A stretch of 64,000 nt of DNA, from the NCBI GenBank assembly GCA_050253075.1, contig JBFWJS010000003.1, positions 85,458 to 149,457 of the forward strand, in the 5' to 3' direction. Origin of the DNA: Deferribacterales bacterium. Its GTDB lineage: Bacteria; Chrysiogenota; Deferribacteres; Deferribacterales; Geovibrionaceae. Both the position numbers and the translations under genes were made by a program. Positions 913 through 10,317 of the stretch are shown in pieces. The notes under the pieces were generated by a model. That model had not been told where the DNA came from. It made no database searches and was given only the letters and a program-made list of their open reading frames with translations. The number at the start of each line of letters is the position of its first letter. Positions within the stretch are counted from its first letter, which is position 1.

Positions 913-1069
913 CAAAATCTACAAAAAAGAATTACAATAAAAAGTCTGCTGTAATTAGGATATTTTTCGTGTGAGTGTAAATTAATGTAAATAAGCATAA
1001 AATAATCAGACAAATTTTAGAATATTTATTCTATTGCAATGTTAATAATATTTTGACTATAATCACAGC

Positions 1070-1651
1070 ATGAGTTGTAACACTGACCATAAGGCACAAT
1101 CAAAAGACATCATCGCATGTGAGGCGCTTAAACTTTTCGTGGGTAAGGGGTATCATAATACCAGCATCCCCGACATAGTGCAGGCCGCAGGTCTTAGTAC
1201 CGGTGCCGTATACCATCATTTCGGGAGCAAAGAGCTTCTGGCTAAATATATCCACGAGATAGCATCCGCCAGATTCGCAGAGAAGTTCCGTGCGCTCGTG
1301 TTCACAAAGCCCAGCTTTAAAGAGCAGGTCAGTGCATTCGTGCATATGATGCTGGAGTGGGACGACGAAGACCCTGTACTGGTGAAATACCTTATCACTG
1401 ACCGCCCCGCAGAGGTGCTGAACAGGAAGACCACTGTATGCTCTGAAAACGGAATGACACTCATAGGCGAGATGGTGAATCGAGGCATGATGCGTCAGGA
1501 AGTTACGACCGATAATAATTTCATAGCCATATCCATTATATCCGGTGCCATCATCTACTTCATAAACCTGAAAAAAGACGGTTTCCTCCACGGAGACCTC
1601 GGACGCAGGGCAGACGAACTTGCCGAACATATCATGAAAGCATTGTGCTGA
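1070..1651 (+). CDS. TetR/AcrR family transcriptional regulator
   Basis: N-terminal HTH: ALKLFVGKGYHNTSIPDIVQAAGLSTGAVYHHFGSKE. Confidence 0.93.
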   Translation: MSCNTDHKAQSKDIIACEALKLFVGKGYHNTSIPDIVQAAGLSTGAVYHHFGSKELLAKYIHEIASARFAEKFRALVFTKPSFKEQVSAFVHMMLEWDDEDPVLVKYLITDRPAEVLNRKTTVCSENGMTLIGEMVNRGMMRQEVTTDNNFIAISIISGAIIYFINLKKDGFLHGDLGRRADELAEHIMKALC

Positions 1652-1743
1652 TTGAAATCCTCTCCGTTTCTTATATAATGTCCTTATAAAACTTTGCGAG
1701 AAAACAATGAAACAGACCAAAGATAAATTTCCGTGCGCTCCGC

Positions 1744-3126
1744 ATGACGGAAGATACGCTCACGGATGAACAGCGTGCATATGTGCATGAGCTTGGCGTA
1801 CGGTATGCAGAAAAGACCGCAGGGTCAAAGAAATGGGCAGAGGACAACTATGACCGTTTCTGCGACTGGATAAACTCTCTCAGCTTTAAACTGAGCCTGA
1901 AAGAGATGATATACCCGATAATATCAGACGGGTCGAAGGGGTCGCATTTCAAAGATATCGACGGCAACGACTTCGTGGATATATCAATGGGCTACGGTGC
2001 GGTATTCATGGGACATAACCCAGACTTTCAGCGTGATGCCATATCGGCACAGGTTGAAAAGGGCTATGAACTGGGGCCTCAGCTAAAACTCAGCGCAGAG
2101 GTTGCAGACCTTGTATGTGAGATGACAGGTGTCGAGAGGGTCGCATTCTGCAACTCGGGCACAGAGGCTGTCATGATGGCTCTCCGAATGGCAAGAGCCG
2201 CCACGGGTAAAAACAAGATATTCATATTCCGCAATTCCTTCCACGGCACATTCGACGGTGTGCTCGGGTTTACAAATCAGGACGGCACATTCCCCGTTTC
2301 ACCCGGGACAACAGACGGCACGGTAGCCGACATCGAGCTACTCGACTATGGCACAGACGAAGCCTTTGAACGTATTAAAGAGTGCATAGACGACTGTGCG
2401 GGCGTCCTTGTGGAGCCGGTACAGAGCAGAAAGCCAGACCTGCGCCCGAAGGAGTTTCTGAAGAAACTGCGTGAGCTCACCGAGGCAAATAATACTGCGC
2501 TGATCTTCGACGAGGTTGTGACAGGCTTCAGACTGCACCCGGGCGGGGCACAGCATATTTACGGAATAAAGGCAGACATAGTGACATACGGCAAATCATT
2601 CGGCAACGGTGTGCCCGTGAGTGCCGTTGCTGGTAAAAGGAAGTTTATGGATGTCATCGACGGCGGTGAGTGGCGTTTCGGTGATGCTTCAAAGCCCGAG
2701 ACGGACGTTGTCTTCTGTGCGGGTACATACTTTAAGCATCCCCTGAGTATGGCTGCTGCAAAGGCTGTTCTGACAGAGATAAAGCGGACAGGCTCAAAGC
2801 ATCAGGACACCGCATCGGCACAGACAGAGAAGATGTGCTCTGCGCTGAACGCATGGTTTGACGAAAATAAAGTGCCTGTGAATATTAAATATTTCGGCTC
2901 TATGTTTCGCTTTGAGAGTTTCGGCGATTATGCTCTTCACCTTGAACCTATCGAGATGGAGCTTATGTTTTTTAATATGATGATCCGCAATGTATACACA
3001 TGGGAGAGGCGTATATGCTATCTCTCATCTGCGCACACGGATGCGGATGTTGATGCTATAATTAAAGCAGTTAAAGAGAGCGTTGAAGACCTGCGTAAGG
3101 GCGGCTTCGACTTTTCTGTGAGGTAG
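1744..3126 (+). CDS. PLP-dependent class III aminotransferase (GSA-aminomutase-like, PKS/NRPS AMT-domain type)
   Basis: FCNSGTEAVM, FHG, VLVEPVQS, LIFDEVVTGFR, TYGK (PLP lysine); start uncertain. Confidence 0.85.
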   Translation: MTEDTLTDEQRAYVHELGVRYAEKTAGSKKWAEDNYDRFCDWINSLSFKLSLKEMIYPIISDGSKGSHFKDIDGNDFVDISMGYGAVFMGHNPDFQRDAISAQVEKGYELGPQLKLSAEVADLVCEMTGVERVAFCNSGTEAVMMALRMARAATGKNKIFIFRNSFHGTFDGVLGFTNQDGTFPVSPGTTDGTVADIELLDYGTDEAFERIKECIDDCAGVLVEPVQSRKPDLRPKEFLKKLRELTEANNTALIFDEVVTGFRLHPGGAQHIYGIKADIVTYGKSFGNGVPVSAVAGKRKFMDVIDGGEWRFGDASKPETDVVFCAGTYFKHPLSMAAAKAVLTEIKRTGSKHQDTASAQTEKMCSALNAWFDENKVPVNIKYFGSMFRFESFGDYALHLEPIEMELMFFNMMIRNVYTWERRICYLSSAHTDADVDAIIKAVKESVEDLRKGGFDFSVR

Positions 3127-3128
3127 AA

Positions 3129-4490
3129 ATGCGAGACAAAGTTAAAAACTATCTGAATGCAGAGCACGAACTTAAAGATGTGACGGTGCACGGATGGGTA
3201 CGCAGTAAGCGTGATTCAAAGAATTTTACATTCCTCGAGGTTAATGACGGCTCATGCCTGAGAAACCTGCAGGTGATAGCAGACGAGAGCATCGAGACAT
3301 ATTCGGCGCTCAAACAGATAAATACGGGCGCATCGGTGGAGATACTGGGCGACCTGATAGAATCCCCCGGGCAGGGGCAGAAATGGGAGCTGAAAGCGAA
3401 AGAGGTAAAGATGCTAGGCTATGCAGATCAGGAGACATATCCGCTGCAGAAGAAGCGTCACTCGGACGAATTCCTCCGTCAGATATCACACCTGCGCCCG
3501 AGGACAAATAAATACGGAGCTATATTCCGCATACGCTCCGAGGCATCTTTTGCGGTGCATCAGTTCTTTCGCGAGCGGGGCTTTCACTATGTCCACACGC
3601 CTATCATCACGGGATCAGACTGTGAGGGTGCGGGGCAGATGTTCCGTGTGACTACTATGGATGATACGAAAAAGCCTGCATCAGAGGACTTCTTCGGCAA
3701 GGCGGCGTATCTTACAGTTTCAGGTCAGCTGAATGTGGAGAACTACGCATGTTCCCTCGGCAGCGTATATACTTTCGGGCCGACATTCCGAGCCGAAAAC
3801 AGCAACACGCCGAGGCACGCAGCAGAGTTCTGGATGATAGAGCCTGAGGTTGCATTTGCGGATATTCACGACAATATGACCCTTGCGGAAGAGTTTGTGA
3901 AATATCTCATATGGTTCCTGCTGGAAAACTGTTACGAAGACCTCGAACTCTTCTTTAAATTTGTAGATAAAGAGCTGGAAGCAAAGCTGAAAGACATCCT
4001 CGAGAGCGACTTCGCCCGTGTGGAATACCGTGAGGCGATGAAGATACTTGCCGAATCAGGGGAGAAATTCGAATACCCCATAGGCTTCGGCGAGGATATG
4101 CAGACTGAACACGAGAGATACCTCAGCGAGAAGCACTTCAAGCGTCCGGTATTCGTATATAACTATCCGAAGACCATAAAGCCTTTCTATATGAGGCAGA
4201 ACGACGACGGCGAGACTGTCGCCGCTATGGACCTTCTGGTGCCCCATGTGGGCGAGCTTATCGGCGGCTCACAGCGTGAGGAGAGGCTGGATGTTCTAGA
4301 GAGTGCCATCGAGGGGATGGGGCTGGATAAGGAAGAATACTGGTGGTACACCGAGCTGCGCAAATACGGCTCTGTGCCTCACTCGGGCTTTGGACTAGGA
4401 TTTGAGCGTTTCCTTATGTTTGTCACAGGCGTGAGCAACATAAGGGACGTCATTCCATTCGCCAGAACACCGAAAAACCTTGATTTCTAA
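3129..4490 (+). CDS. asnS: Asparagine--tRNA ligase
   Basis: OB-fold GWVRSKR..NDGS, LTVSGQL, FRAENSNTPRHAAEFWMIEPE, GELIGGSQRE, PHSGFGLGFER. Confidence 0.97.
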   Translation: MRDKVKNYLNAEHELKDVTVHGWVRSKRDSKNFTFLEVNDGSCLRNLQVIADESIETYSALKQINTGASVEILGDLIESPGQGQKWELKAKEVKMLGYADQETYPLQKKRHSDEFLRQISHLRPRTNKYGAIFRIRSEASFAVHQFFRERGFHYVHTPIITGSDCEGAGQMFRVTTMDDTKKPASEDFFGKAAYLTVSGQLNVENYACSLGSVYTFGPTFRAENSNTPRHAAEFWMIEPEVAFADIHDNMTLAEEFVKYLIWFLLENCYEDLELFFKFVDKELEAKLKDILESDFARVEYREAMKILAESGEKFEYPIGFGEDMQTEHERYLSEKHFKRPVFVYNYPKTIKPFYMRQNDDGETVAAMDLLVPHVGELIGGSQREERLDVLESAIEGMGLDKEEYWWYTELRKYGSVPHSGFGLGFERFLMFVTGVSNIRDVIPFARTPKNLDF

Positions 4491-4499
4491 ATAAATTAC

Positions 4500-4527
4500 A
4501 AGCCCTGCTTTTTTGCGGGGCTTTTTT
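4500..4527 (+). terminator. Intrinsic terminator after asnS
   Basis: AAGCCCTGC-tttttt-GCGGGGCTT followed by T run. Confidence 0.8.
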
Positions 4528-4530
4528 ATG

Positions 4531-4576
4531 TTGACTTTATCTTTATATAAAGTATCTTTACATAAAGATACTTTAT
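4531..4576 (+). promoter_or_regulatory. Promoter (TTGACT..TATCTT) overlapped by two PecS/UrtR-type 18-bp palindromes (4538-4555, 4553-4570)
   Basis: TATCTTTA-CA-TAAAGATA lies within a perfect 14-bp-arm inverted repeat (4547-4576); the second site overlaps it by 3 bp. Confidence 0.75.
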
Positions 4577-4588
4577 TGAGGTCAGTTT

Positions 4589-5089
4589 ATGAAAGATCAC
4601 GTAGACATGATAATAGACCAGTGGAACAGCGCAGAGCCGGATGCGGATGTTTCGGCTATGAAGGTTTTCACAAGGATTTTCCGCCTGAACAGGCACATGA
4701 CACAGCCTCTGGCAGCTATATTTAAGAAATACAGCCTTTATGACGGCGAATTTGACCTTTTGGCGACACTGCACAGGAATAATAAGCCCGAGGGGATGAC
4801 GCCTAACGAACTGCGGGGCTCTGTCGTGCTTAGCTCCGGCGCTATGACAAACAGGCTGGACAGCCTCGAGCGGGCGGGGATGATAGCGAGATCGGCGAAC
4901 CCTGCCGACAGGCGCAGTACCTACGTGTCCCTCACTGATAAAGGCGAAAGGACTGTTAAGGAAGCCCTCGGCGGATATCTCGAATACCTCGATGGTCTGC
5001 TTGGCGTTTTAAGCGAGGAAGAGAGGGAAACGGGTGCGGATATCCTGCGGAAGCTGCTGCTTCAGATGGAAGGTGAATGCCATGAATAA
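4589..5089 (+). CDS. MarR family regulator, PecS/UrtR-like
   Basis: DHVDMIIDQW N-terminal helix, EFDLLATLHR, SSGAMTNRLDSLE, DRRS wing. Confidence 0.9.
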   Translation: MKDHVDMIIDQWNSAEPDADVSAMKVFTRIFRLNRHMTQPLAAIFKKYSLYDGEFDLLATLHRNNKPEGMTPNELRGSVVLSSGAMTNRLDSLERAGMIARSANPADRRSTYVSLTDKGERTVKEALGGYLEYLDGLLGVLSEEERETGADILRKLLLQMEGECHE

Positions 5090-5984
5090 GCCTATGCTAA
5101 GAGCACATATCAGCCTTTTACTGTGGGCGTTTATAGTCGGGCTGTCTTTCCCCGTTGTCAGTGCGCTGACCGACGGTCTGCCCCCTGTGTTTCTGACATC
5201 TTTCAGGTTTATCATAGCCATACTTGCCCTCGTGCCTTTCCTGCGGGGCGAGGCTCAGCTTATACCTTCAAAGGGCGGTATGGTTTTATATATCCTTATG
5301 TCGCTATGCCTCGCCGTGTTTTTCAGCGGGATGTTCTGGGCGGCGAATGTTTCTACATCTTTGTCTATGGCGACACTGTACCTCAGCATACCTCTGCTGT
5401 CTTACGCTGTGGGGCGGTCTTTTAATGTAGAGAGGAAAGACCTGAAGATGCTGGCGATACTGCTTTTGGGCGCTGTCGGTGCATTGATGCTGGCATTTGT
5501 GGATGCGGGGCGTGTTCACGGGAATATCAGCTTCGGCATAGGCGAGCTTGTGTTTTTTGTGGGCTGTGTTGCTTCCGCGCTTTATCCCGTATTGACAAAG
5601 TTCGGGCTGAAAAAGGGGCTTTTGTCGCCTTCTTCGGTGGTGCGCACATTCTGGAGCTTATTTCTGGGGAGCATCATCATGGCTGTCATCGGATTTGCCG
5701 TGGAATCTCCTTCGGAGATGCTTAGGATGAATATGTATGATCTTATGCTGGTGATATATCTCGGCATTTTTTCCAGCGGGGTTACATTCTGGCTTCAGCA
5801 GAGTGCGACGTCTGTTCTCACGCCTGCTTCTGTCACGGCGTACAGCTACCTTGTGCCTTTTGTGTCTATGGTTATACTGTTTATAGACGAGCCTTCGCAG
5901 CTTTCTTTTAAGTGGCTGCCTGGGAGCGTGATGGTTGTCGGAGCGATATATATATTGCTGAGATACGACATGAAGGCGAAGTAG
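5082..5984 (+). CDS. DMT/EamA family transporter (PecM-like)
   Basis: About ten hydrophobic helices in two EamA repeats; start MNKPML overlaps the MarR stop. Confidence 0.88.
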   Translation: MNKPMLRAHISLLLWAFIVGLSFPVVSALTDGLPPVFLTSFRFIIAILALVPFLRGEAQLIPSKGGMVLYILMSLCLAVFFSGMFWAANVSTSLSMATLYLSIPLLSYAVGRSFNVERKDLKMLAILLLGAVGALMLAFVDAGRVHGNISFGIGELVFFVGCVASALYPVLTKFGLKKGLLSPSSVVRTFWSLFLGSIIMAVIGFAVESPSEMLRMNMYDLMLVIYLGIFSSGVTFWLQQSATSVLTPASVTAYSYLVPFVSMVILFIDEPSQLSFKWLPGSVMVVGAIYILLRYDMKAK

Positions 5985-6134
5985 CATTTATTATTAATTG
6001 ACTGAACTCTTTAAAACTGATAAATAATTTACCTCTTAACTGTATTCCTGCGATGTCTCTTAAGGCGACCTGCGGGAGCCGTTAAGCTGGGCAGCTTGTT
6101 TGCTTCTTACATGCAGCATCAAGGTACTGACCTT

Positions 6135-6219
6135 GCCCGAATGGCGGAATTGGTAGACGCAAGGGACTTAAAATCCCTCGGAGGATAACTCTGTACCGGT
6201 TCGATCCCGGTTTCGGGCA
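6135..6219 (+). tRNA. tRNA-Leu(TAA)
   Basis: GCCCGAA/TTCGGGC acceptor stem, GGCGGAATTGGTAGACGC D arm, AGGGA-CTTAAAA-TCCCT anticodon arm, long variable arm, GGTTCGATCCC T arm; CCA not encoded. Confidence 0.97.
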
Positions 6220-6247
6220 TATTCAAACAGCTTTGTCTGTTCATATC

Positions 6248-6280
6248 AAAAGGCGATACGCTACCAAGTGTCGCCTTTTT
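6248..6280 (+). terminator. Intrinsic terminator after tRNA-Leu
   Basis: AAAAGGCGATAC-gctaccaa-GTGTCGCCTTTTT. Confidence 0.8.
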
Positions 6281-6286
6281 AATGAA

Positions 6287-6320
6287 ATAATTCAGCCCAT
6301 TTTTCATTCTAAATTAATTT
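6287..6320 (+). repeat. Left direct repeat of islet
   Basis: ATAATTCAGCCCATTTTTCATTCTAAATTAATTT; 31/34 identical to 9860-9893. Confidence 0.85.
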
Positions 6321-6467
6321 TATTACATTTCATTGGACAATAATTTTTTTAATAAAAACATGATCATAATGCTTGGTATCTATGTTCACATTTTATAAAA
6401 ATTTGCACCTAACTAAAATATGGTGTATTTTATTAATGTCGTTATTAAATTGTTACTGAGGTTTTAT

Positions 6468-8585
6468 ATGTCAGATAAAGAAGGTAAAGTTGATTTTTCA
6501 TTTGGCTGGTTAGCGTTGAAGCTCCTTGGCAAGAATCTTTATTCCAATGCGTGGAGTGCTATATCAGAGCTAGTTGCAAACGGATTTGATGCGAGAGCAA
6601 GTGAAATCTATGTTTATATAGATGCTAGTAATAAAGAGAATTCAATTATTGAAATATTAGATAATGGCAATGGCATGGGACTGGATGAAATTAATACATA
6701 CGTAAAAGTTGGCTATAACAAGAGAAAAGATGTTGAAAATGATGATGTGAGAAATTCCTTAATGGGTAGAAAAGGGATTGGTAAACTTGCTGCACTCTAC
6801 CTGTCTGAGAACTATTATTTGTTTACTAAATCAACCACGCAGACAAGTATTTGGGAAATGAAATATAATGAGAATCCAGAGAATGAGGAAGAGAAGCCCT
6901 CTCTTGAAGAAGTAGAGTCTGATATTATCCCGGACTGTAATGTGGTTTGGAAAAACCTTGAGACCGGGACTCTATTGAGAATGTTAAATGTAGATTTGAC
7001 TGGTGTTGGCGCGGCAACTTTTAAATCTCTAGAATATAAGTTGTCAAATCACTTTTCACTTGAAGCAATGGGAGATAAAAAAATATACTTATTCGTGAAG
7101 GATAGTATCAATCAGGTCGTTACAAAAGAAAAGTTCAAGGTTATCGAAAAACATGTCGCTTTTAAGAACTTTGCATACATTAACTATGCTCTTAATAGTA
7201 ACAAGGACGAATCATTAAAAAGTACAATCAAAGCCTTGCCAAAAGGAGTTGTTAAGATTCCTTTTAGCTCTAAAGATGATAAAGGCATATATGAGCATAA
7301 ATGTGAACTGGCGGAGTTTAAAAAACCGAGCAAAGGTAATTTTGGTATTTCAGGTAGCATAAAGCATGTTAATGATGATGGAGAAGTCATTGAGAAAACA
7401 TACGAACTAAGCGGTTGGATTGGTATACATAGTACAATAAACAACAATGCGGCTAAAGACAATGACGACAACTTTAATAAGAACAAGGCATATAATCCGA
7501 ATCAAATACGACTGTATGTCCGAAATAAGCTAGCTATAGAAAATTTTCTAAATATTATACAGAACACTCAAGCTTTTGTTAATTATATCGAAGGTGATAT
7601 ACACTTTGATATTTTAGATGACGATGATTTTCCAGATATTGCGACATCTAATAGACAGGGATTAGATGAAAACGATGAACGAGTTAAATTGTTGATTTCA
7701 CTTGTGGAATCAAATATTCAGGACTTGATTAATAAGAGAAATGAATTAGCTGAGAGAATAAAAGACTTGAAGAAAGCAAGGCAAGATTCTGCTAAAAAGC
7801 AATTTGCAAAAGAGCTTGATAAAGAGCTGGGAGGGTTAGCATCGATTACTAAATCTGAGAAAGCTCAACTTCAACTAGCTGTTGTTAATAAAATAAAAGG
7901 AGATGTTACTCCAAAAGATGAGTATATCATCTTTGTTTCCCATAGTAGTGCTGATTCTATCTTTACGAACTTTATATATGATTTGCTTTTGTCAAAAGGT
8001 GCTGATCCGAGGGAGTTTTTCTATACCTCTGCTAAAGATAGTAATAAAAAATATGAAGATTTAACTCCTTTAGATCAACAGATGAAAGAAAATATTACTA
8101 ACCAAAATGCACTGATTTTCTATTTGCCGAGTATAAACTACATGAGAAGTGAATATTGCATGTTTGAGGGTGGAGCAGGATGGGCAACGAGAGGCGTAGG
8201 GGAGTATTTAATGTTACCTATGAAATATTCTGATTTGCCGAAATTACTAACGAACGGCAAAGGAGAATTTTCACTTATCAAATCTATAGATGAAAAAAAC
8301 AACATCGATCTTGGGCGAGAAGAATATCAATATATTGTTTCAGTGTTAAATAGAATGATTGAACATTTAAATTCTGGGCGAGAGATCAATGATAAAACGC
8401 TTATTCCCAAGTTTCCAGATGCACATATACCGAATAAATTTGAATTAGAGCAGACAGGGAAAGTTGAGCGTGATTTTATGGATACAAGTATTGTAAGTTA
8501 CTGGGATTGCTATGTTACTAGTGAGGTGTCGCAGTACTTAACGAATTATGTTAAAGTATCAGGCAAAACTAAATCTTATACTTAA
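6468..8585 (+). CDS. GHKL/MORC-type ATPase (HATPase_c_3-like) with coiled coil and C-terminal TIR domain
   Basis: Start at MSDKEG (GAGGT RBS); AISELVANGFDA, ILDNGNGM, MGRKGIGKLA GHKL boxes; IFVSHSSAD...SINYMRSEYCMFEGGAGW TIR signature with the catalytic-position Glu. Confidence 0.85.
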   Translation: MSDKEGKVDFSFGWLALKLLGKNLYSNAWSAISELVANGFDARASEIYVYIDASNKENSIIEILDNGNGMGLDEINTYVKVGYNKRKDVENDDVRNSLMGRKGIGKLAALYLSENYYLFTKSTTQTSIWEMKYNENPENEEEKPSLEEVESDIIPDCNVVWKNLETGTLLRMLNVDLTGVGAATFKSLEYKLSNHFSLEAMGDKKIYLFVKDSINQVVTKEKFKVIEKHVAFKNFAYINYALNSNKDESLKSTIKALPKGVVKIPFSSKDDKGIYEHKCELAEFKKPSKGNFGISGSIKHVNDDGEVIEKTYELSGWIGIHSTINNNAAKDNDDNFNKNKAYNPNQIRLYVRNKLAIENFLNIIQNTQAFVNYIEGDIHFDILDDDDFPDIATSNRQGLDENDERVKLLISLVESNIQDLINKRNELAERIKDLKKARQDSAKKQFAKELDKELGGLASITKSEKAQLQLAVVNKIKGDVTPKDEYIIFVSHSSADSIFTNFIYDLLLSKGADPREFFYTSAKDSNKKYEDLTPLDQQMKENITNQNALIFYLPSINYMRSEYCMFEGGAGWATRGVGEYLMLPMKYSDLPKLLTNGKGEFSLIKSIDEKNNIDLGREEYQYIVSVLNRMIEHLNSGREINDKTLIPKFPDAHIPNKFELEQTGKVERDFMDTSIVSYWDCYVTSEVSQYLTNYVKVSGKTKSYT

Positions 8586-9649
8586 GCTGTGCTACTGTTT
8601 AATTCATTAACTAGATGTTTTGAGAGTGCTTCAGCGAATTTACACGGTAAAGCATTACCGACAAGCCTACATGCTCTTTCTAAATATCTAGTTTTAAATG
8701 TGTAGCCAATTGGAAATGTTTGTAAAATAGCGGCTTCTCTTACTGAAATGGTTCTGTCTTCTTCTGGATGTATAAATCTGCCAGTACTCATAGTTGTACA
8801 GCCTGTAGTTATGGTAGGAGAAGGCTTATCCCAATCCATTCTAGCATAAACATTTCCATATCCTTTATTTTTACCTTTATGGCATGGCGGTCTTAGTTCG
8901 TCTGGTATCGAATACCTGTTTGAACCACTTTTAATATACTTAAGTCTTTCCTTATTAATTGGAGCTAGTTCCCTGATGATGCTCCAGTGATTCATATTTT
9001 CTATAGCGTTTTCAGAAACTTGACGAATAGTTAGTGGAGTTGGTATTGTGATATTCTCAAAAGCATCTTTAACAGTTAGCCACTTTAGCTTACCATTTTC
9101 ACCTTTCTCAGCATGTGTAGTTGATGGCATTTCAATCTTCTTAGCTTTACTAGCATACATCACTAAACGATTGCGAGACTGAGGTACACCAAAATCAGCA
9201 ACTTGTAATACTTTATAGCTGGTGTAGTAACCCATTTGGGCGAGTTGGTTTAGAACATCATCAAAAATTTCTTTACCTCTCTTAGCCATGCCAGGAACAT
9301 TTTCCATCATAACTGCTTGAGGTTCTATAATTTTGATTGCTCTTAGAAATTCATAAACAAGTTTATTTCTAGGGTCATCTTTTTTCATTGTTAAAGAGGA
9401 AAATCCTTGGCATGGAGGGCAACCAGTGACAATGTTAATTCCTTTGTTTTTAAGTTGTATGAAATATTCATCTGGTATTTTGGTTATATCTGTAGTGTTA
9501 ACTTTTACTTCTGGATGGTTGTATTTGTATGTTTCTGAGGCGTCAATATCAATCTCAATAGCTTCTATAACGTTTATTCCAGCTTGTTTTAATCCGACAG
9601 TTAAGCCTCCTGCTCCTGCGAAAAGATCTATAGCTCTCAATCTACCCAT
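8582..9649 (-). CDS. DNA (cytosine-5)-methyltransferase
   Basis: Motif I DLFAGAGG, IV GCPPCQGFS, VI ENV, VIII QSRNR, IX RTISVREAAILQTFP, X GNA. Confidence 0.96.
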   Translation of the reverse strand: MGRLRAIDLFAGAGGLTVGLKQAGINVIEAIEIDIDASETYKYNHPEVKVNTTDITKIPDEYFIQLKNKGINIVTGCPPCQGFSSLTMKKDDPRNKLVYEFLRAIKIIEPQAVMMENVPGMAKRGKEIFDDVLNQLAQMGYYTSYKVLQVADFGVPQSRNRLVMYASKAKKIEMPSTTHAEKGENGKLKWLTVKDAFENITIPTPLTIRQVSENAIENMNHWSIIRELAPINKERLKYIKSGSNRYSIPDELRPPCHKGKNKGYGNVYARMDWDKPSPTITTGCTTMSTGRFIHPEEDRTISVREAAILQTFPIGYTFKTRYLERACRLVGNALPCKFAEALSKHLVNELNSSTA

Positions 9650-9859
9650 GTTGCAATCCTATAAATTTACTTGAAACCAAATTTGATAGCTTATACTGTA
9701 TTACTGCGTTTGTAAATATGTGTTCAGGTATCAGTGTATTACAATGATGGTTATCAACATAAGTATCGGCATAAATGTCAAATTTATTAGTTTTTTTTTA
9801 CACATCGTCTACCTCTTCCCAAAAGAGTAGGAATGAGTAAATTTACTCGTCGATTAAAT

Positions 9860-9893
9860 ATAATTCAGACCATTTTTCATTCTAAGTTGATTT
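9860..9893 (+). repeat. Right direct repeat of islet
   Basis: ATAATTCAGACCATTTTTCATTCTAAGTTGATTT. Confidence 0.85.
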
Positions 9894-10046
9894 GTGTCCA
9901 ATTTCGACTAAAACCGCCAAAAAAATAAAGTAACGCATCTTATAATGATGAACATTAAATATGTATTTACTCGTTAGTAAATATTATAATTTCATCTTTA
10001 TGAGGTGTATTTAGGGGGCATTTTAAAGCCTTGCTGGCGGGATTAA

Positions 10047-10071: not shown

Positions 10072-10103
10072 GAGAGTGGTTTAGGTAGGTTCGCTAAGTT
10101 GAA

Positions 10104-10280
10104 TTAGTTGCTTTTAGAAGTTTCTTTTTCCGCAGGTTTTTCAGTTTCTGTAGGTGTCTGAACTGTTGTTTCACCCGCAGGTTTAACTGTTTTGGAAGTG
10201 TCTTTTGCATCGGATGCAAATGCTTGTACAGATGCAAGCATGAACATTGCAACTATAACTGCTGAAATCATTTTTCTCAT
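10104..10280 (-). CDS. Unannotated 58-aa exported low-complexity peptide (not in the ORF track)
   Basis: MRKMISAVIVAMFMLASVQAFA-SDAKDTSKTVKPAGETTVQTPTETEKPAEKETSKSN; AAAGGAG RBS, AFA signal peptidase site, upstream sigma-54 promoter, downstream hairpin. Confidence 0.85.
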   Translation of the reverse strand: MRKMISAVIVAMFMLASVQAFASDAKDTSKTVKPAGETTVQTPTETEKPAEKETSKSN

Positions 10281-10317
10281 AATTCGGTACTCCTTTTAAA
10301 ATTGTTACTGTTCTATA

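Follow-up and report, generated by a model that had tools for sequence, protein, structure and literature searches.

How a DNA methyltransferase could serve defence when its partner is not a restriction endonuclease but an ATPase ending in a TIR domain is the question raised by a two-gene cassette at positions 6,468 to 9,649 of a 64,000-nucleotide (nt) window of Deferribacterales bacterium DNA (assembly GCA_050253075.1, contig JBFWJS010000003.1, positions 85,458 to 149,457, forward strand). One gene encodes a GHKL+S5 ATPase joined by a coiled coil to an SpbK-type TIR domain, and the other a C5 cytosine DNA methyltransferase (C5 methylase); their coordinates are collected in Table 1. The interpretation favoured here, which is given slightly less than an even chance, is abortive infection through NAD+ depletion gated by generic 5-methylcytosine (5mC), with methylation as the protective state.

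The two open reading frames (ORFs) are convergent and overlap by 4 nt, and the AT-rich two-gene cassette recognised in a preliminary description of this DNA is real, the GC content of positions 6001-10000 being 31-37% as against 45-53% for the 500-nt bins across 1001-6000. An in-frame ATG at 6420 would extend the ATPase-TIR protein to 721 amino acids (aa), although the homologues and the database call favour the start at 6468. The methylase, rightly taken to be complete, matches the Pfam family DNA_methylase over aa 5-346 (E 3e-64), and of solved structures DNMT1 is the nearest, though its identity is low; the intact PPCQ and ENV motifs suggest that it is active and places 5mC on the host genome. 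It is the single C5 methylase match in that genome, and the ATPase-TIR is the single TIR_2 match. The methylase target is not assignable from genome-wide palindrome avoidance, which points to many sites, and a promoter and terminator scan stayed at chance level. As a separate observation, the host genome (G000) strongly avoids CGCG (0.16), CCWGG (0.25), AAGCTT (0.25) and GGCC (0.35) despite its one present-day C5 methylase.

Regarding the ATPase module, HATPase_c_3 of Pfam matches aa 28-144 (E 8e-20), and the motifs E34/N38, D65-G67-G69, G100-G103-G105-K106, G167-T168 and R396 are intact, E34 and N38 being kept in 211 of 214 full-length TIR-type proteins and the remainder being gaps; this set, drawn from homologue searches and loci, is redundant and underlies all the conservation counts given here. 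In the AlphaFold2 model of the whole protein, built from a 40-sequence alignment (predicted local distance difference test, pLDDT, 79.9), aa 11-432 align (VIA) with the ATPase+S5 modules of MORC3 (Z 16.8, 300 residues aligned, root-mean-square deviation (rmsd) 4.2), SMCHD1 (16.8), MORC2 (16.7) and MutL (16.4). The earlier layout of intact GHKL ATPase, coiled coil and TIR domain thus stands, apart from the S5 domain, which had been overlooked. The MORC-specific motif GhXhhpXXRhl is absent, the corresponding S5 strand, identified by eye, reading QIRLYVRNKLA, without G and R, and the most variable stretch of the module is an insert in the S5 region, at about aa 240-310. A hidden nuclease domain was considered and rejected: GHKL+S5, helices and TIR fill the model, no nuclease fold is present among the 50 structure matches listed (which alone would not prove its absence), and the predicted fold leaves no unassigned domain able to conceal one. 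Vsr likewise gives zero matches in the host genome (99.9% complete; the positive control of the search matched in 3/14). The original claim of a cassette devoid of a nuclease holds.

At the C-terminus, Pfam TIR_2 on its own matches weakly (E 0.006, below the cut-off), and with a profile built from 24 TIR-type ends SpbK scores E 1.1e-22 and the second-best PDB match 0.064. The last 227 aa, modelled separately (pLDDT 89.1), give SpbK as the top Foldseek match (E 8e-6) and align with it at Z 12.9 (VIA; rmsd 3.0, 154 residues aligned; next TIR 10.9); aa 483-684 of the full-length model also align with SpbK, and the C-terminal end clusters apart from 70 nuclease-type ends. Predicted fold and sequence profile together make the TIR identity of this domain certain, and the structural search of the C-terminus that had been suggested beforehand returned SpbK first and then other TIRs. 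The domain and its catalytic-position Glu had been correctly seen, FVSHSSAD beginning at nt 7932 and SEYCMFEGG at nt 8148, but not its extent, which reaches about aa 684 (nt 8519) instead of nt 8200. SpbK is a demonstrated, filament-forming NADase (PMC12847820), and its catalytic E192 corresponds to E567 here. By pairwise alignment, five of the nine SpbK residues modelled as NAD+ contacts are identical (S493, S494, T520, Y563 and E567), two are conservative (L535, M539) and two changed; of the filament-interface residues of SpbK, G194 and W197 are retained and N191 is changed. In the TIR-type homologues, E567 is found in 213/214, G569 in 214/214 and W572 in 213/214, and H492-S-S-A-D496 satisfies the Hx[ST]xD motif, which in its strict form occurs in 90/214 of the family and as HxxxD in 169/214. 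Since the ATPase motifs and E567 are near invariant in these 214 homologues, both enzymes are under selection.

The retained residues suggest that the cassette TIR is an NADase. That it is instead a nuclease or a ligand-binding, allosteric site, as proposed in 2008 (PMC2292703), or a Thoeris-like maker of a signal read by a distinct receptor, is hardly probable: SpbK also produces N1-cADPR (PMC12847820), and at one of the 20 loci whose neighbourhoods were scanned a ThsA_Macro gene directly follows the pair, but the NADase residues are retained, no receptor is present in the cassette and a receptor-like neighbour occurs at that locus only. At the locus concerned (L003:4271-5083), the ThsA_Macro gene, of Thoeris type II effector kind, lies downstream of the methylase and ATPase-TIR genes, and the contig ends 300 nt further on, so a ThsB gene could be cut off. 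The one SIR2_2 match of the host genome is distant, at G000:C3:326267-326662 within a 1038-aa open frame, and is possibly part of another NAD-depleting defence gene.

The ATPase-TIR family is large but patchily distributed. The best 120 of 1768 homologue matches are 45-53% identical (self excluded) and all carry the TIR end, with Deferribacteres, Sulfurospirillum, Sulfuricurvum, Campylobacter, Companilactobacillus and Listeria among the named sources; within the host phylum, 68 genomes yielded just one full-length gene, and a search at 1e-25 of the 401 genomes surrounding G068 matched two, G068 itself included. A single-protein search of genome contigs returned one broken copy, the TIR profile found one TIR-type locus in viral contigs, most matches in plasmid and phage records covered the ATPase only, and the ESM Atlas gave generic cluster names only. 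One named Deferribacteres genome supplies both the best methylase homologue (56%) and a 50% ATPase-TIR homologue.

The linkage of this family to C5 methylases, which the preliminary description had proposed to examine, is pronounced: a C5 methylase lies within 500 nt at 29 of the 31 other ATPase+TIR loci, several of which are near-duplicates, and both exceptions end at a contig edge. Among the 29, the distance is within about 50 nt in 22, while 3 are head-to-head, 2 broken and 2 have Vsr between the genes. Chance adjacency within defence islands was rejected as an explanation, 22/29 methylases abutting or overlapping the ATPase-TIR gene; at the Listeria locus the insert consists cleanly of the two genes. 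A neighbour scan covering 63 of 93 ORFs around 20 TIR-type loci found nuclease-type matches near 6 of them (GIY-YIG, MutH-like, HaeIII, BpuJI, Vsr and PIN), with no family repeated, and 3 of these have their own separate methylase; Vsr and AIPR occur at the TIR-type locus L096. Highly diverged, divergently transcribed C5 methylases are also paired with an ATPase-TIR at L040:646-1878, L050:1244-2434 and L054:4689-5825, with an FPCT motif in L040 and L050.

The same sensor module is found with other outputs. In a histidine-kinase-type sister, 46% identical over aa 1-435, it is followed by a response-regulator-like gene; in more distant relatives, those of the BbrUII/HgiDII family, it carries a nuclease-type (PD-(D/E)xK-type) end, and a P2-like coliphage has an annotated ParaMORC3 and Dcm pair. 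Because the module bears a PD-(D/E)xK-type end or a kinase with a response regulator elsewhere, the C-terminus can be regarded as a swappable output, and nuclease, kinase and TIR on one sensor module make a tidy case of effector exchange. Clustering at 50% yielded 98 new full-length representatives (69 TIR, 27 kinase, 1 nuclease and 1 other), a count biased by the query, and in a quick tree the kinase clade is nested in, or adjacent to, the core TIR clade. In the kinase-type loci L006-L062 (e.g. L007:6001-9122), a C5 methylase, a GHKL+S5-histidine kinase and a response-regulator-like gene of 270-340 aa stand together; in most of them no nuclease was seen, and the C-terminal part of the response-regulator-like gene is unassigned.

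What distinguishes the TIR type from its sisters is the choice of methylase. Across 73 gene pairs dereplicated from 125 (19 TIR, 20 kinase and 34 nuclease), the identity of the module and that of the methylase are correlated in the nuclease (rho 0.76) and kinase (rho 0.68) types, and only at rho 0.26 in the TIR type. At 40-50% module identity, methylases less than 35% identical are found in 48/53 TIR comparisons, 0/56 kinase and 0/146 nuclease; at 50-62%, the figures are 6/13 for the TIR type versus 0/113 and 0/31 for the sister types. The TIR-type partner methylases form 7 clusters at 40% identity and are only 16-35% identical between clades. In an IQ-TREE phylogeny of 38 of the 73 methylases, which contains long branches, 6 label changes are needed, 5 of them forced by strong branches, and a single clade for the methylase partners of the core TIR and kinase group is rejected (approximately unbiased test, p-AU 1.4e-5); the methylases of four TIR-type loci sit in the kinase-type clade and those of six in or beside the nuclease-type clade. 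In particular, the ATPase-TIR of L041, with 40% identity over its full length, lies directly against an M.HhaI-like enzyme (E 1e-108, recognition region included), which belongs to a different family from the cassette methylase. By these sequence comparisons, the partners of TIR-type members come from five or more methylase clades that are unrelated to one another.

This pattern bears directly on the mechanism first suggested, by strict restriction-modification (R-M) logic, in which the clamp recognises one unmethylated site; the S5 insert would then be re-tuned for each methylase. The variability of that insert, the tracking of methylases by the nuclease-type and kinase-type sisters and the TIR-type methylases found within or near the sister clades agree with it; nevertheless, at least five partner swaps would each have required a matched change of specificity, the correlation is very low in the TIR type, and the explanation is considered quite unlikely. 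The pairing of close ATPase-TIR homologues with unrelated methylases weakens the case for detection of one specific unmodified site, and single-site reading fits poorly with the rule that a methylase is always present but its kind varies.

That same rule would be directly accounted for by the opposite polarity, in which breakdown of the host genome by a phage frees 5mC nucleotides or methylated fragments that switch on the ATPase-TIR and deplete NAD+. Metis shows such logic for N6-methyl-dAMP (m6dAMP) with an NAD+-depleting effector, and versions reading methylcytosine or carrying their own methylase have been anticipated (10.1101/2025.11.05.686725). Against it, no modified-base reader domain can be recognised in the model, the module either derives from restriction enzymes with a protective methylase or is their sister, and an intact effector beside a broken methylase should be tolerated, which is seen in none of six damaged loci, a weak argument. 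Damage affects the effector only in four loci (L001, L045, L063 and L126), both genes in two (L053 and L067) and the methylase only in none, which points weakly in the direction expected of a protective methylase. The opposite polarity is thus regarded as unlikely.

The obligatory pairing also fits a guard, with the ATPase-TIR monitoring the methylase and firing when it is disturbed by anti-restriction inhibition, loss or trapping on modified phage cytosines. C5 methylases have one common catalytic fold and a covalent intermediate, and systems that guard in this way are known, PARIS and PrrC among them. However, the low identity between partner clades gives a conserved protein contact little to rest on, and the possibility appears very unlikely; a complex prediction of the module (aa 1-480) with the methylase scored 0.00, which is neutral for either outcome.

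Protective methylation by a generic mark remains the favoured reading. The cassette would be an anti-phage or anti-plasmid analogue of R-M in which cell suicide replaces cutting. The methylase would mark the host genome with 5mC; GHKL+S5, on its modelled fold and the known behaviour of the MutL/MORC family as ATP-driven dimeric DNA clamps, would load or accumulate on DNA without the mark; and the clamps would gather the TIR domains into the head-to-tail assembly required by SpbK-type TIRs, leading to cleavage of NAD+ and arrest of the infected cell. As the partner swapping suggests, the protecting mark would be generic 5mC or a short core and not one long site, and the gene could therefore pair with almost any C5 methylase. 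The modification plus abortive infection proposed in the preliminary description survives as the best reading, on account of a conserved methylase-linked module, no nuclease and an NADase, SpbK, as the nearest solved TIR relative, with its single-site detection weakened. The more general proposition, that a MORC-like clamp reads cytosine methylation independently of sequence and gates a TIR NADase, whether unmethylated DNA kills or released 5mC kills, is advanced tentatively, as plausible but below an even chance.

Several points weigh against this reading. Defence, NAD+ depletion, the clamp trigger and the polarity of methylation are all inferred, and no 5mC-reading pocket was identified. The pair counts are not independent, and the three groups come from different collections (viral contigs for the nuclease type, metagenomes for the others); the clade for the p-AU test was chosen after inspection of a quick methylase tree. 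The kinase-type sisters have the same module but remain with a single methylase family, a pattern that purely generic reading leaves unaccounted for, and the partner methylases could protect overlapping sites, few targets being known. The damaged loci are few (an estimated p of about 0.2 by gene length) and may include assembly errors. If the proposed mechanism holds, methylation-based self/non-self marking would be joined to abortive infection without a nuclease, and the cassette would offer a two-gene bacterial model, usable with any C5 methylase, for the response of a MORC-type ATPase to DNA methylation.

The cassette sits in a variable cargo site, just downstream of a tRNA-Leu gene detected by ARAGORN, and is replaced in a near-identical strain: in a contig of run X4 both flanks match with few differences, and 1269 other letters replace positions 6281-10036. 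Run X3 contains most of the cassette with scattered differences, its outer flanks being uncovered, and no excised-circle joint was seen in the contigs examined. Three genomes of the same genus (G023, G024 and G025) have other genes behind the same tRNA-Leu. The 34-nt direct repeat flanking the cassette occurs in 7 copies in the host genome (0 for the reversed control pattern) and is, from its sequence, a possible recombination site; it is absent from all other TIR-type loci and therefore belongs to the island of the host and not to the defence system. A 27-nt site, with imperfect inverted arms and a 7-nt spacer, lies at both 34-nt repeats of the cassette and marks tRNA-Leu/tRNA-Phe island cargo in four of the 16 genomes from the family (reversed control 0), further places being G000:C4:146000-160512, G023:C1:286005-289011 and 771099-777944, G030:C1:2279803 and G031:C2:196697. 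The C4 island of G000 has five such sites in the same orientation and two tyrosine-recombinase-like ORFs, and two sites enclose the same three-gene block (TauE, HTH-PBP and GAPDH) in G000 and again in G023. These sites look like a site-bounded cassette array, and the small recombinase does not follow them across genomes. Beside one of them, at L193:6955-8646 (G031), an AT-rich 563-aa ORF has a start that resembles, by eye, a retron-type reverse transcriptase. To the right of the cassette, at about 10075-10281 on the minus strand, a short, unannotated ORF-like stretch has a signal-peptide-like start and Pro/Thr/Glu-rich repeats.

Table 1. Features of the cassette and its insertion site, in positions of the window
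Feature	Positions	Strand	Remarks
tRNA-Leu(TAA)	6134..6220	+	ARAGORN; cassette just downstream
Left 34-nt direct repeat	6287..6320	+	core an imperfect inverted repeat, 10-7-10
ATPase-TIR gene (GHKL+S5-coiled coil-TIR, paraMORC4 architecture)	6468..8585	+	705 aa
GHKL ATPase + S5 module	6498..7763	+	aa 11-432; fold match to MORC/MutL
Long helix/coiled coil joining ATPase module to TIR	7677..7889	+	helices aa 404-455 and 462-474 (AlphaFold2 secondary structure)
SpbK-type TIR domain	7914..8519	+	aa 483-684; HSSAD motif; catalytic-position Glu567 at nt 8166-8168
C5 cytosine DNA methyltransferase gene	8582..9649	-	355 aa; PPCQ (Cys80) and ENV motifs intact
Right 34-nt direct repeat	9860..9893	+	91% to left copy

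Among known systems, NCBIfam (June 2026) has no model for the pair above its cut-off, and PADLOC 2023 recognises it only in part, by REase_II and spbK, and might therefore mislabel it as RM type II. Thoeris differs in its ThsA gene, none being linked in the cassette. Metis is alike in being a methylation-dependent defence that ends in NAD+ depletion, with a type III carrying its own methylase predicted (10.1101/2025.11.05.686725), but it reads m6dAMP and uses an NAD+ diphosphatase, and no homologous parts were seen in a comparison by description, every domain of the cassette being otherwise assigned. SpbK of ICEBs1 from Bacillus subtilis shares the TIR sequence and fold, the catalytic Glu and most filament residues, and its demonstrated mechanism is abortive infection via NAD+ loss; SpbK is a single gene that senses the phage portal through a 94-aa four-helix bundle, whereas the cassette has a 430-aa GHKL+S5 sensor and an attached methylase.

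A sister clade, 40-46% identical over aa 1-435, has the layout of the GHKL-histidine kinase/response regulator modules known from the vicinity of C5 methylases (10.1101/2020.08.26.268516; R.EcoUTORF4938P type, PMC2441816) and one methylase family in common with four TIR-type loci, although its output is a phosphorelay and not a TIR; its Response_reg matches are only weak. The BbrUII/HgiDII type II restriction endonucleases (NF050001, paraMORC3-like) have a homologous module (aa 16-450, E 2e-52) and the same arrangement with a C5 methylase, often convergent, but the whole-protein score is 178.6 versus a cut-off of 550 bits, the match stops at aa 450, a TIR replaces the nuclease-type C-terminus and the TIR-type partner methylases span several families. 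A GHKL-Shedu nuclease provides defence for which the ATPase is required (PMC12137116), and GHKL-bearing putative restriction endonucleases with unassigned ends have been listed (PMC2441816), among them R.LweSORF291P, which possibly belongs to the ATPase-TIR family. Two further papers (10.1101/2025.09.30.679545 and PMC5829577) have no bearing on the pair, and the latter yields no usable target for BbrUII.

The architecture itself cannot be called undescribed, as had been supposed, since GHKL+S5 with a C-terminal Hx[ST]xD TIR in R-M operons was published in 2008, on computational grounds only, as paraMORC4 (Iyer, Abhiman and Aravind; PMC2292703). No experimental study of a GHKL-TIR and methylase pair was found, although subscription papers and preprint supplements, outside the search, may list one, and a 2026 preprint still terms prokaryotic MORC/paraMORC defence 'proposed', with TIR unmentioned in the portion available (10.64898/2026.09.30.754977). 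The cassette agrees with paraMORC4 in its GHKL, S5 and C-terminal TIR domains, the Hx[ST]xD motif, the R-M-type neighbourhood, the lack of GhXhhpXXRhl and the patchy distribution of the family. It departs from the 2008 account in that the TIR is placed here with the NADase SpbK instead of the nuclease or ligand-binding guess of that time, and the minimal two-gene form and the methylase swapping do not figure in the main-text portions of that paper compared. In summary, for a family that has been a prediction since 2008, the cassette supplies an undamaged two-gene representative in which the catalytic residues are plain and NAD+ would be a simple read-out, and the SpbK-type TIR placement, the methylase linkage, the three outputs, the partner swapping and the cargo-site replacement are new here.

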